Below the pieces are notes generated by a model. That model saw only the letters and a list, made by a program, of their open reading frames with translations. It searched no databases and was not told where the DNA came from. Source: a virus (Duplodnaviria; Heunggongvirae; Uroviricota; Caudoviricetes). Taken from it: DNA of 64,000 nt. The stretch's first letter is position 1. Each line of letters starts with the position of its first letter. Of this stretch, positions 4,550 to 59,229 are shown piece after piece. Both the position numbers and the translations under genes were made by a program. The stretch lies in the IMG/VR virus record IMGVR_UViG_2513237251_000009; one strand, written 5' to 3'.

Positions 4550-4894
4550 TTACTTTAATAATTTCAGTGCCTTTACATCAACTTCAACACTGCTCAGGTC
4601 TTTATCAATTTCACCCTCAATTCTTACTTTGTCTTTCGGAGAAACATTCTGCCCGGCCCATACGCTGTCATCAATATCCGTGACAATTGTCCCGCTATTG
4701 TCACGAAACTCATAACGTTCATCACCCACTTTTTTAACGATGCTCCCTTCAAGGATAACCCATGCATCATCCTTCAGTTCTTTTGCCTGCGCTACTGTTG
4801 AACGCTCTGCTTCTGGCCCCTGGAAACCACCCTGCTGTGCAAAAGCGCCAAAAGACACACCGGAAATAAGTGCTGCAATCAATACCTTTTTCAT
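4550..4894 (-). CDS. BOF (YgiW/YdeI-family OB-fold) periplasmic protein
   Basis: 114 aa with signal peptide MKKVLIAALISGVSFGAFA; family pattern DDAWVILEG...YEFRDNSG; absent from prophage B. Confidence 0.7.
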   Translation of the reverse strand: MKKVLIAALISGVSFGAFAQQGGFQGPEAERSTVAQAKELKDDAWVILEGSIVKKVGDERYEFRDNSGTIVTDIDDSVWAGQNVSPKDKVRIEGEIDKDLSSVEVDVKALKLLK

Positions 4895-5379: not shown

Positions 5380-5463
5380 TTATCCCCAGCGGCAAATCGA
5401 ATACACCACCAGCGCCACCGCCATCGCAATTCCTACCGTTGTGAATGCTTCAGGCCAGGTCAT
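5380..5463 (-). CDS. 27-aa hydrophobic peptide coupled to DUF551 gene
   Basis: ATGA stop/start overlap with DUF551 stop; MTWPEAFTTVGIAMAVALVVYSICRWG. Confidence 0.35.
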   Translation of the reverse strand: MTWPEAFTTVGIAMAVALVVYSICRWG

Positions 5464-6017
5464 TGATTCACCTCCTGCGGCGGTTCTGGTAGCGACATCC
5501 AGTGGGTTGCTTGCCTAAGATCATTACCCGGACTAACTGCTATACCTCCGCGCCGGAACGTGCCTCCGAGATAGCGTGCGGAATATATTAATGGCCCAGC
5601 CTCGCTATCGATATTCATCGAAATAAGCACGTTCTGGCTCTTTTCAGGCATTCGCTCAGTACAGCTTATCCAGCCATCCAGAGTTATCGGAGATCTGGTT
5701 GACGTTTCCGAGATTTCCCGAAAATTGTTGGTTGACGAATTCTTATTTTCCCGAAAGTTTCCGGCCTGAAGCATGGCGACGCGGCAGGCGTTCCAGCCAT
5801 CAGCATATGTTTTAGTTACACCGTCGAGATGGCAGGTAAGCAAATCCATTTCATCAGGCACTACCATTGCTATCGGCTCTGCTTCCAGTGATGCCAGCGC
5901 GATACGAAACACATTAGCCAGCAGGCTGTCTGAAGACTTGTTATCGTGCGCCGAGTCGCTCAGGAAGCCTGTGATGTATGATTTAATCTCCGCGCGTTCT
6001 CTGGTAATAGTGCTCAT
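5460..6017 (-). CDS. DUF551 phage protein
   Basis: 185 aa ending ...THWMSLPEPPQEV. Confidence 0.6.
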   Translation of the reverse strand: MSTITRERAEIKSYITGFLSDSAHDNKSSDSLLANVFRIALASLEAEPIAMVVPDEMDLLTCHLDGVTKTYADGWNACRVAMLQAGNFRENKNSSTNNFREISETSTRSPITLDGWISCTERMPEKSQNVLISMNIDSEAGPLIYSARYLGGTFRRGGIAVSPGNDLRQATHWMSLPEPPQEVNQ

Positions 6018-6018
6018 A

Positions 6019-6237
6019 TCAGTTTTCCTTATACGGATTAATTTTATTGTGCAGTGCGCTGAATGATTCCCATGTCACATCGGTATATAGCTCAATAACT
6101 GGTTCAAATGTCCTTCCAATTATCCAGACCAGTAATAGCGGGGATATCGGTATCATCAACACTATAAACAGAATGAAAAACAGAAACTCTGTTGTTCTGC
6201 TCTTTCGTGGGTAATTTTTTTCTAAATAATGTTTCAT
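6019..6237 (-). CDS. Small membrane protein
   Basis: 72 aa with hydrophobic core FLFFILFIVLMIPISPLLLVWIIG. Confidence 0.45.
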   Translation of the reverse strand: MKHYLEKNYPRKSRTTEFLFFILFIVLMIPISPLLLVWIIGRTFEPVIELYTDVTWESFSALHNKINPYKEN

Positions 6238-54436: not shown

Positions 54437-54603
54437 CGGTTGTCTCTGCTGGCGCAGCAGGTGCCAGTTGTTCAGGCTGGCGTGCGAATTGTAAACCAGA
54501 ATGCCAGGAAAAAACAAAACCCGCCGAAGCGGGTTAAGTGCGGGTGCGTTGAGGATGCCTGATTCATCAGAGGTGGCGAGGGATTTCTCCCTCGCCGGGT
54601 CTC

Positions 54604-54759
54604 TTACTCCTCAGGTTCGTAAGCTGTGAAGACAGCGACCTCCGTCTGGCCGGTTCGGATTCGTACCTCGCAGAGGTCTTTCCTCGTTACCAGTGCCGTC
54701 ACTATGACGGTAATACAGATGACGATCAGGGCGATTAACATCGCCTTTTGCTGCTTCAT
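54604..54759 (-). CDS. hokD: Hok/Gef-family type I toxin HokD
   Basis: 51 aa MKQQKAMLIALIVICITVIVTALVTRKDLCEVRIRTGQTEVAVFTAYEPEE. Confidence 0.85.
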   Translation of the reverse strand: MKQQKAMLIALIVICITVIVTALVTRKDLCEVRIRTGQTEVAVFTAYEPEE

Positions 54760-55004
54760 AGCCTGCTTCTCCTTGCCTTTCGGCGCGTAAGAGGCTAACC
54801 TACATGTGTCTAGCATGAAATTGGCCTCAGATTAATGTTAGGCGTCTTGCAGGACGCGTAATGTTAACTGGGGCTTTTCTCTGTCTGCCTTACGGTGGCA
54901 TGCCCGAGGCAGACAGCCTCAAGCACCCGCAGCAATTCTACTTAACTCTCGCTTTACCGCAAACCGTTTTTACCCGATATGGGAATTCCCATATCGTAAT
55001 GAAT

Positions 55005-55109
55005 TCAGTTCCCTAGTCGATCCATCAAAAACACAACCAGGCAGTAAACGCCCACAACAGCAATAACAGCCAGCGCACCTTCCATTGCCAGTGAAATATC
55101 ATCCGACAT
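55005..55109 (-). CDS. 34-aa hydrophobic peptide
   Basis: AAGGAGGG RBS then ATG; MSDDISLAMEGALAVIAVVGVYCLVVFLMDRLGN. Confidence 0.35.
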   Translation of the reverse strand: MSDDISLAMEGALAVIAVVGVYCLVVFLMDRLGN

Positions 55110-55224
55110 ATTCCCTCCTTTGGTGTGAATCCCGGCGAACGTTTTTACCCCCACCGACAAATAACATATACTAAAAAATCAATAGCTATAGCAACGCCTG
55201 TAATTGCAAAGGCTTCAGGCCAGA

Positions 55225-55869
55225 TCATTGGCGCACCTCCTGCGGCGGTTCTGGTAGCGGCATCCAGTCGGTTACATTGCGGCTCTGTGTTTCGAAAAAT
55301 TCATCACCATTACGGACTACATCAAAAAACTCACCGTCTCGATATTGCGCATAAAGAACGAATGCGCCATCACATAAAATAATTACGTGCTGACCATCAT
55401 CCGGCATTCGCTCACTACAGCTTATCCAATCATCCAGAGTTACCGGATAGTTGGTTGACGTTTCCGAGATTTCCCGAAAATTATTGGTTGACGAACCCTT
55501 TTTTTCCCGAAAGTTTCCAGCCTGAAGCATGGCGGCGCTGTCTGGCGGGGCAGCATATAGCGGCACGTATATTTCCGGTTCCTTATCAGCACCGGGTTGC
55601 TCTTCCAGTGAGAATGTCTTTCCGGTAAATCGATTCATATAAAGCACGGGCTCTGCTTCCAGCGAAGCCTGAGCAACAAGGGCCAGTGCTAAATCCAACT
55701 CAATTGCCTCGAGAGAATTTTTGAATGCTGTCTGTTTTACTGCAAATTTCATCGCCTTTACATTTTCACTAACATGACTGATTAACTGCTCTTTTGTAAA
55801 AGTGGTCATCTCATTCTCCTTTGATGCGAATGCCAGCGACAATTGAAGCCTGATAGCTAATTCACTCAC
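55225..55869 (-). CDS. DUF551 phage protein
   Basis: 214 aa ending ...VTDWMPLPEPPQEV. Confidence 0.6.
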   Translation of the reverse strand: MSELAIRLQLSLAFASKENEMTTFTKEQLISHVSENVKAMKFAVKQTAFKNSLEAIELDLALALVAQASLEAEPVLYMNRFTGKTFSLEEQPGADKEPEIYVPLYAAPPDSAAMLQAGNFREKKGSSTNNFREISETSTNYPVTLDDWISCSERMPDDGQHVIILCDGAFVLYAQYRDGEFFDVVRNGDEFFETQSRNVTDWMPLPEPPQEVRQ

Positions 55870-56261
55870 AGTACCGCCTCCTGAAAATTGCCCTGATAGA
55901 ACGCCAGTACACGCAGCATAACTTCACTCTTCCGGCACTCGCCACAGATTATGTTCTGTTGTCTGTCGTAGCGGCGTATTTCTCCGTCTGGTAACTTTCG
56001 AATCAATGTCTGGTCGGTTGCTTTCTCCGCTGCCTTACGCCATACGCGATACACCTGTTCTGATGTAAAAACACCGTATTTACCGGGCATGTATAAATCG
56101 CCACAAGCCAGTACATCCACAAGGCAACGTCTGACTGAATGCCAGCCTGCTCCCGTCGCTCTCTCCAGTTGTGATATCGTCATGCGTTCATTTTTGCGTA
56201 CCAGCCCGATAATTCGGGCCTTCAGTTCTTCACGCTGTTCGTGTGTAAAAGGTTTCGCCAT
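55866..56261 (-). CDS. Hypothetical phage protein with Cys motif
   Basis: 131 aa ORF with ...ICGEC... Confidence 0.45.
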   Translation of the reverse strand: MAKPFTHEQREELKARIIGLVRKNERMTISQLERATGAGWHSVRRCLVDVLACGDLYMPGKYGVFTSEQVYRVWRKAAEKATDQTLIRKLPDGEIRRYDRQQNIICGECRKSEVMLRVLAFYQGNFQEAVL

Positions 56262-58803: not shown

Positions 58804-59229
58804 TTAGTGCATCACCACAGCATTCCCTGCCGGGCCGCCGCGATTCATCTGGTCATACAAAACAACCGCTGACGCAACAAAATCATCGACATCCTTCACC
58901 AGCCGATCCCTCCGTTCGACGATCTCACGGTAATATTCAGAACTGTGGCTGCGCATACGGGCCACCAGCAAAGGCGGCATCGCCTTTTCGATCGCCGGTA
59001 ACAGAGCCTGCATTTTTTCAACAGCATCAGGGGTGTCTTTATCCAGCCAACGGAAAATTTTCTGGGTATTACGGGCCAGGGCTTCCGGATGGCTGTCGTC
59101 ATACAGTTCCGGGAACGTCATTCCCAGCTCGAAATACGCTTTGGTAATTTTCGCAGCCGGTACTTTTTCGCCGTCCGGATGCGCCCAGACATTCATCGCC
59201 ATGCGGATGTGTTCATGCTTGATTTTCAT
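58804..59229 (-). CDS. YdaT-like regulator
   Basis: 141 aa MKIKHEHIRMAMNVW... Confidence 0.6.
   Translation of the reverse strand: MKIKHEHIRMAMNVWAHPDGEKVPAAKITKAYFELGMTFPELYDDSHPEALARNTQKIFRWLDKDTPDAVEKMQALLPAIEKAMPPLLVARMRSHSSEYYREIVERRDRLVKDVDDFVASAVVLYDQMNRGGPAGNAVVMH

Follow-up and report, generated by a model that had tools for sequence, protein, structure and literature searches.

Two small hydrophobic open reading frames beside a prophage hok locus are probably unrelated membrane micropeptide genes

The DNA analysed here, referred to throughout as the window, is a stretch of 64,000 nucleotides (nt) from the IMG/VR record IMGVR_UViG_2513237251_000009 (Caudoviricetes), in which two prophage regions, A and B, carry small hydrophobic open reading frames (ORFs) next to hok loci. 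Every feature of interest is carried by the minus strand. Along prophage B, replication genes are followed by DUF1627, DUF977, DUF551, the small ORFs, hok, a 92-amino-acid (aa) ORF, DUF968, rusA and Q, so the small ORFs sit in the nin-type early-right region upstream of Q, and positions 54560-55900 are 100% identical to E. coli O157:H7 PV15-279 and many other enterohaemorrhagic E. coli (EHEC) chromosomes. We focused on two ORFs of this region: one of 27 aa, which overlaps the end of an Ead/Ea22-like early gene with a DUF551 domain and has a counterpart in prophage A, and one of 34 aa, which lies between the 27-aa ORF and the hok promoter (Table 1). We consider it probable that these are two unrelated, genuine minus-strand genes, each encoding a single-pass inner-membrane micropeptide, and that neither is part of the hok/sok RNA circuit.

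Table 1. Positions of the micropeptide genes and of the features around them in the window (SD, Shine-Dalgarno sequence; RIBOseq, ribosome profiling)
Position	Strand	Feature	Basis
55145..55228	-	27-aa micropeptide gene, prophage B, MIWPEAFAITGVAIAIDFLVYVICRWG; a single transmembrane helix predicted; absent from RefSeq annotation	
55236..55240	-	SD GGAGG of the 27-aa ORF, lying within the DUF551 coding sequence 7 nt ahead of the ATG	sequence
5380..5463	-	27-aa micropeptide gene, prophage A, MTWPEAFTTVGIAMAVALVVYSICRWG; ATGA overlap with the 5460-6017 gene; hok promoter directly after	
55005..55109	-	34-aa micropeptide gene, MSDDISLAMEGALAVIAVVGVYCLVVFLMDRLGN, = WP_001278450.1 = XECs145; one transmembrane helix	RefSeq, RIBOseq
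55114..55120	-	SD AAGGAGG of the 34-aa ORF, 4-5 nt before its ATG; identical in all copies examined	sequence
54975..54996	.	Perfect 22-bp palindrome CGATATGGGAATTCCCATATCG; 8 nt past the 34-aa stop; centre about 57 nt upstream of hok +1	
55140..55150	.	First copy of the direct repeat, reading CGTTTTTACCC on the + strand; contains the 27-aa stop codon; bounds the 175-bp insert on the left	
54965..54975	.	Second copy of the direct repeat, CGTTTTTACCC; bounds the 175-bp insert on the right and adjoins the hok -35 on its upstream side	
54935..54963	-	Inferred hok promoter: -35 TTTGCG, 17-nt spacer, -10 TAGAAT; +1 near 54928	sequence
55225..55809	-	Ead/Ea22-like early gene with C-terminal DUF551 domain, WP_000206793.1	RefSeq; Pfam PF04448 E = 2e-20
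5460-6017	-	Ea22-like/DUF551 gene, prophage A	ATGA overlap with the 27-aa ORF
54604..54816	-	mok/hok reading frames (hok 54604-54759); neighbour, outside the micropeptide genes	annotation + Rfam

An earlier note on this DNA had read the ORF behind the DUF551 gene of prophage B as an 18-aa peptide whose ATG overlaps the stop of that gene. The overlap stands and the length does not: TTA GTA, and no stop, follows GAT TTT, so the 18-aa peptide is a misreading, and the ORF runs for 27 aa and is thus a full-length homologue of the prophage A peptide, with which it shares 15 of 27 residues. The prophage A peptide, with its ATGA overlap to the DUF551 gene, lies where the earlier note had placed it. 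In prophage B the DUF551 gene contains, in its last codons, the SD that serves the 27-aa ORF, and it ends in a TGA overlapping the ATG of that ORF. The hydrophobic, single-helix character attributed to the peptides was likewise borne out, with best 18-residue Kyte-Doolittle windows of 2.1-2.9 for the 27- and 34-aa peptides and a 29-aa homologue described below.

Copies of the 27-aa ORF were gathered by scanning IMG/VR with a degenerate pattern in which codons 3-6 and the last four codons were fixed and 17 codons and the start were left free; together with those in GenBank phages and in this window they number 125, with 56 distinct DNA sequences and 37 distinct peptides. The 17 unconstrained codons are free of stops in all 125, and 123 overlap the upstream stop (121 ATGA, 2 GTGA). 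Variation peaks at the third codon position (entropy 0.48, 0.30 and 0.93 at positions 1, 2 and 3), and the summed ratio of nonsynonymous to synonymous differences per site (pN/pS) is 0.43 in frame vs 0.80 and 1.39 in the two shifted frames. Between prophages A and B, pS is 0.70 and pN 0.24, and conserved residues often have different codons. All length variants are in frame, namely 25 aa (loci L003 and L006), 24 aa (phage-plasmid SJ46) and 28 aa (another set); the 25-aa variant is a 6-nt in-frame deletion that retains the overlap behind a gene with another C-terminus. A GGAGG-type SD precedes the ATG by 7-10 nt in the main upstream-gene classes, with a weaker GGGG motif in one minor class. This pattern of variation argues for purifying selection on the 27-aa ORF as a protein-coding gene, and the overlap with an SD inside the upstream gene in 123/125 copies has the signature of the translational coupling that had been proposed.

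Upstream of every member of the 27-aa family we found a gene with an Ead/Ea22 N-terminal module (MTTFTKEQL or MTTITKERL...LASLEAEP), and the C-terminal ends of these genes are of at least four different kinds, including DUF551 (...MPLPEPPQEVNQ) and ...RNGLISVEDILR. Of 124 genes sampled solely by their DUF551 end, at least 47 were followed by a member of the 27-aa family. hok lies downstream of the 27-aa ORF in 56 of 110 loci; in the others, the next gene begins 4-6 nt past the 27-aa stop, or an intrinsic terminator is found there. Because the Ea22-like gene is constant and hok is present in about half of the loci, the former is the stable partner and hok only a frequent neighbour. The proximity to hok seen in the earlier note is therefore real, whereas the implied link to hok gives way to one with the Ead/Ea22-like gene.

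The 27-aa gene is present in Shiga toxin (Stx) phages, other lambdoid phages, P1-like phage-plasmids (226 plasmid records) and one Vequintavirinae record; in phage 933W it occupies 58832-58909, after L0139. The prophage A variant of the region was detected in 1375 of 5426 complete E. coli genomes (25%), with no annotation of the 27-aa ORF among the matches listed. RefSeq annotation has none, and a few GenBank records have a "hypothetical protein". Term searches did not find the gene in an exo-xis review or an Ea22 structure paper. Three further candidates were discarded: lambda lacks a 27-aa gene after ea22, K-12 yfdS (DUF551) is followed by yfdT, and DUF551-peptide fusions suggested by a cluster look-up were absent from the sequences and reflect a clustering artefact.

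Two observations concern the surroundings of this gene in other genomes. In Escherichia phage Av-05 (KM190144.1 74413-74493; the record is classed as Vequintavirinae, a virulent type), an Ea22-like gene without DUF551 is followed by a coupled 27-aa ORF, which may reflect horizontal acquisition or prophage-derived sequence in the record. About 30 of the 124 DUF551 genes from IMG/VR (e.g., with the tail WMPLPEPPQEVK) have their stop overlapped by another hydrophobic ORF of about 50 aa (MDSFAKYTIIDWIAFIQVLLIWFYMAYRSGQW...), and small membrane proteins behind DUF551 genes may thus be a recurring arrangement.

The 34-aa ORF and its strong ribosome-binding site are present as the earlier note had stated. 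Its product is the same protein as XECs145 of E. coli O157:H7 Sakai, one of 465 candidates in a RIBOseq study, which called it with a 20-codon upstream extension and predicted an inner-membrane protein with one helix (Huecker et al. 2017, PMC5597208). Ribosome footprints on XECs145 gave a translatome value of 346 reads per kilobase per million mapped reads in lysogeny broth (LB), with a ribosomal coverage value of 4.35 and a coverage of 0.99; the ribosomal coverage value was 1.14 in brain heart infusion (BHI), and the mean for short annotated genes was 1.55 (PMC5597208). That study pooled identical copies and excluded ORFs below 30 aa, and is therefore uninformative on the 27-aa ORF. It drew no link from XECs145 to hok, 29-aa homologues, a 175-bp insert or the palindrome. 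The absence of both a translation signal and conserved frames, which the earlier note had named as grounds for giving up its proposal, was not what we found: both frames show conservation, and published ribosome footprints cover the 34-aa ORF. Since these come from uninduced EHEC, the 34-aa ORF behaves as a lysogen-expressed, moron-like gene.

Alignment of prophages A and B revealed that the 34-aa ORF and the palindrome together form a 175-bp insert between the 27-aa stop and the hok -35, with a copy of the direct repeat at either edge. The module is found in 673 of 5426 E. coli genomes (12%), and its codon changes among E. coli copies are six synonymous vs three conservative. It is placed between the 27/25-aa ORF and hok in every copy examined, and in one copy (locus L005) an IS481 element separates it from hok. 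With the 34-aa peptide as query, HMMER returned only 7 near-identical proteins from 1.84 billion representatives, and the EDL933 RIBOseq supplements have no entry for it. In E. coli O55:H7 TB182A (NZ_CP038295.1 2470216-2470427) the 34-aa ORF is duplicated in tandem as a 107-bp unit, the second copy having a TTG start without a strong SD; both copies are WP_001278454.1 in RefSeq.

Through weak tblastn matches we reached a 29-aa homologue of the 34-aa peptide, MLVLKCALAIAAVMAIYCLAVVLMDRLSD, with about 50% identity and an alignment score of 78 (shuffles, 21.8 ± 4.3). In phages Tritos and HannyBb, and likewise in plasmids and chromosomes, the ORF for this homologue stops 12 nt short of the hok -35; it has a conserved SD and its own promoter, in which the TTGAAT and CATATT hexamers are kept while the sequence of the 17-nt spacer varies. 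This hok-upstream region occurs in 1581 of 5426 complete E. coli genomes (29%), where the ORF is unannotated among the matches listed. The 29-aa ORF is still intact at two loci where hok has decayed (L268) or been replaced (L274), and across the 34/29-aa family an intact ORF, the SD and the start are retained at about 50% divergence. Together with the ribosome footprints on the 34-aa form, this marks the 34/29-aa ORF as protein-coding. At E. coli chromosomal loci L271-L274, the unit of 29-aa ORF and hok lies just downstream of genes for FRG domain, large AAA ATPase, AIPR and SIR2 proteins; the presence of such defence-type genes suggests a cargo hotspot with the unit as its fixed right flank.

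The 22-bp palindrome is present in prophage B and missing from prophage A, in agreement with the earlier note. It occurs once in the window (0 expected by chance), and every other perfect palindrome in the 64 kb is shorter. At the RNA level it gives a 9-bp hairpin whose loop is AAUU (81-nt context, -22.4 kcal/mol, z = -3.0). Its 16-bp core TATGGGAATTCCCATA is retained in 19/19 copies of the 34-aa module, and the 29-aa form lacks it. The palindrome was also considered as an intrinsic terminator, which is doubtful because neither strand has a U tract. On the hok side, an Rfam sok/hok-leader match at 54754-54928 agrees with the inferred hok +1 at about 54928, and the hok mRNA 5' end GCGGGTGCTTGAGG is complementary to the 3' sequence CCTCAACGCACCCGC, as in the tac/fbi pairing expected in hok mRNAs. 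A further Rfam match, to isrK, falls below threshold (27.7 bits vs a gathering cut-off of 50, E = 0.001) and covers the hok mRNA 3' end and terminator at 54514-54595 on the minus strand.

Published Cappable-seq data for EDL933 place a hok-strand transcription start site (TSS) exactly at the palindrome centre in 3 of 8 conditions (PMC10469882). The Sok TSS (window 54808) is recovered in all conditions, which confirms that our coordinate mapping is valid, and another hok-strand TSS precedes the mok ATG by one nt (window 54817; 8/8 conditions), with none at about 54928 (PMC10469882). This last pattern may mean that mok starts without a leader, or that the method misses the folded 5' end of hok for technical reasons.

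Searches of Pfam, PHROGs and NCBIfam assigned neither peptide to a family; the best NCBIfam match was KdpF (E = 0.024), far below the cut-off. Rfam gave nothing over 54975-55240, which spans the peptides and the palindrome, and literature searches with the peptide sequences returned no paper. We aligned all four peptides with Hok and obtained scores within or close to those of shuffled controls, without a Pfam Hok/Gef match; the strongest alignment, that of the prophage A 27-aa peptide, was reached by 16 of 500 shuffles and covers a 12-residue hydrophobic stretch. The idea that the 34/29-aa ORF arose by decay of a Hok paralogue or by tandem duplication of hok was rejected, as neither DNA nor protein similarity exceeded shuffles, and alignment did not support the 27- and 34-aa peptides as paralogues.

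These results can be combined into a model of two separate genes. The 27-aa gene would be a cistron placed after a mosaic Ead/Ea22-like early gene, here with a DUF551 C-terminal domain. Given the GGAGG in the last codons and the ATGA overlap, ribosomes ending the Ea22-like protein would start the 27-aa peptide, and induction or infection would then yield both together from the early operon. Its acidic N-terminus (WPE/D), hydrophobic core of about 18 residues and C-terminal Arg predict a helix with the N-terminus out and the C-terminus in, and by analogy with bacterial proteins below 50 aa that have one helix, it most likely binds a larger membrane protein of host or phage. hok would adjoin this gene because hok cassettes often sit just past the end of that operon. 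The 34-aa gene would belong to a family of 29-34-aa ORFs directly upstream of prophage hokD/hokW-type promoters, in which the 29-aa form is commoner. The palindrome may provide a stable 3' hairpin for the 34-aa transcript, or act as a barrier or as a promoter/operator before the hok promoter. Beyond membrane insertion, the mechanism of the peptides is proposed by analogy with other small membrane proteins.

Several points weigh against this model of two independent membrane-peptide genes. Translation of the 27-aa ORF is predicted from its sequence, the Sakai study having covered ORFs of 30 aa or more, and the RIBOseq value of XECs145 is a pooled one. In the 34/29-aa family pN/pS is 0.32-0.56, and frame +1 scores similarly. 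A search for sigma-70-like promoters gave none ahead of the 34-aa ORF of this window, and the palindrome has no U tract. The coupling, the topology and the target of the peptides are all inferred, and the constant hok-adjacent position of the 34/29-aa ORF over about 50% divergence could mean a functional tie to Hok.

That position is the main ground for regarding the 34/29-aa peptide as a protein partner of Hok, acting in immunity, damping or as a helper, so that prophage hok loci would have three components. The same-strand location directly upstream of the hok promoter is kept amid varied flanks in phages, plasmids and chromosomes, the ORF is expressed in lysogens, and its product has a membrane helix, as does Hok. 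We nevertheless find such a partnership unlikely, since the ORF stays intact where hok has decayed or been replaced, 41 of 56 hok loci lack it (in a sample selected for the 27-aa ORF), only 9 plasmid records gave tblastn matches, and the minimal R1 hok/sok is established to function without such a gene. The earlier note had instead likened the peptides to type I toxins, which would depolarise the membrane and be held by an antisense RNA as Hok is by Sok. They are indeed short, hydrophobic and single-helix, they adjoin a true type I locus, and two weak antisense promoter-like sites lie on the + strand at 55085-55112 and 55144-55172; many phage early micropeptides are toxic if overproduced, and toxicity of these peptides on overexpression would not be unusual for a phage micropeptide. 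The resemblance did not hold up, and on balance we judge a type I toxin here rather unlikely: promoter-like sites on either strand at the peptides are not enriched (3, vs 1.3 ± 1.0 in shuffles), no antisense terminator was found at the ORFs, the -35 of the first antisense site varies from CTGGCAATGG to CTGGTAATGG, and Rfam detected no RNA over them. Moreover, the 27-aa ORF, with its ATGA overlap and exposed SD, looks like a coupled cistron inside an operon rather than a transcript of its own with a long folded leader, and the 34-aa ORF, with a short leader, an exposed AAGGAGG and the high coverage value in growing cells, is unlike a silenced toxin. Neither peptide resembles Hok beyond composition, or any curated family.

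It is also conceivable that the frames yield no functional product and that their conservation reflects constraint on DNA or RNA, such as promoter-upstream elements, recombination joints or operon punctuation. The missing annotation of the 27-aa ORF, the similar pN/pS of frame +1 in the 34/29-aa family, and the location of both regions next to a promoter and module junctions would fit with this. We hold it to be very unlikely, because variation in the 27-aa ORF is biased to codon position 3 with a frame-specific pN/pS, its 125 copies contain no stops and only in-frame indels, and the start codon and SD are retained behind differing upstream genes; furthermore, the 34-aa ORF has a RIBOseq coverage of 0.99, and frame +1 of the 29-aa ORF contains stops. 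Least probable of all, and in our estimation hardly credible, is a role as holin, antiholin or other lysis modulator, the other function that the earlier note had entertained for these prophage-encoded small membrane helices. The ORFs are located outside the lysis cassette, in the early/nin region between replication genes and Q, or in the exo-xis/ea region of other phages, with no adjoining endolysin or Rz; at 27-34 aa they are far below known holins (typically at least 60 aa), and no PHROG lysis family matched.

In kind, the two predicted genes resemble several known systems. AcrZ, MgrB, MgtS, KdpF, CydX and PmrR are alike in size (25-50 aa), in having one helix and in having been overlooked by annotation, and KdpF and CydX are translationally coupled genes at operon ends; these proteins have no homology to the present peptides, which are phage-encoded. 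Small membrane proteins of unknown function are common in phages. The small genes of the lambda/Stx exo-xis region (orf60a, orf61, orf63, orf73, ea22 and ea8.5) belong to the same type of operon, and the 27-aa gene follows ea22-like genes directly, including that of 933W; the known exo-xis proteins are soluble, whereas the 27-aa peptide is predicted to be membrane-embedded. With phage morons, the 34-aa ORF has in common that it is a discrete 175-bp insert with its own SD, lysogen expression and a terminal hairpin, and the 29-aa form has a promoter; it differs in that the copy in this window lacks a recognisable promoter and the hairpin a U tract. Hok/Sok of the hokD/hokW type shares with these genes the small hydrophobic peptides, the strand and direct adjacency, and the 34/29-aa ORF is fixed at the hok promoter, but the peptides lack similarity to Hok, a mok-like overlapping frame, a long folded leader and a detected antisense RNA gene.

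The value of these findings lies mainly in annotation, in the genetics of ea22 in Stx phages and in what may be a hitherto unstudied constituent of hok loci, and the genes are not surprising in kind. Both are very common, and the 27-aa and 29-aa forms are missing from RefSeq annotation because they fall below gene-caller length limits. The ea22-like genes of Stx-converting phages have been studied for the lysis-lysogeny decision, and hence for Shiga toxin release; since ea22 deletions or polar mutations would also remove the predicted coupled membrane peptide, published phenotypes may need re-reading. At hok loci, a classic toxin-antitoxin system gains a flanking gene that is expressed in lysogens and has been left unstudied, and where that gene has a promoter its transcription runs directly into the hok promoter, with possible consequences for hok regulation. 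A bolder proposal, to which we give little credence, is that prophage hok/sok has a protein as its third component in the 29-34-aa peptide, a membrane partner by which Hok activity or immunity is tuned and which goes unannotated in about 40% of E. coli genomes, and that the 27-aa peptide, rather than Ea22, explains part of the pro-lysogenic ea22 phenotype in Stx phages.

Some minor features of the neighbouring genes were also recorded. The longest ORF of the DUF551 gene in prophage B (55225-55869) has a GTG start 60 nt upstream of the ATG start used in RefSeq. In prophage A, a 72-aa ORF with the hydrophobic stretch EFLFFILFIVLMIPISPLLLVWIIG (6019-6237, minus strand) stops 2 nt short of the start of the Ea22-like/DUF551 gene. 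Between hok and the DUF968 gene, prophage A also carries a YgiW/YdeI-like gene (4550-4894, minus strand) with a signal-peptide-like N-terminus; it matches L0136 beside hokW in phage 933W, is missing from prophage B and looks like a moron.

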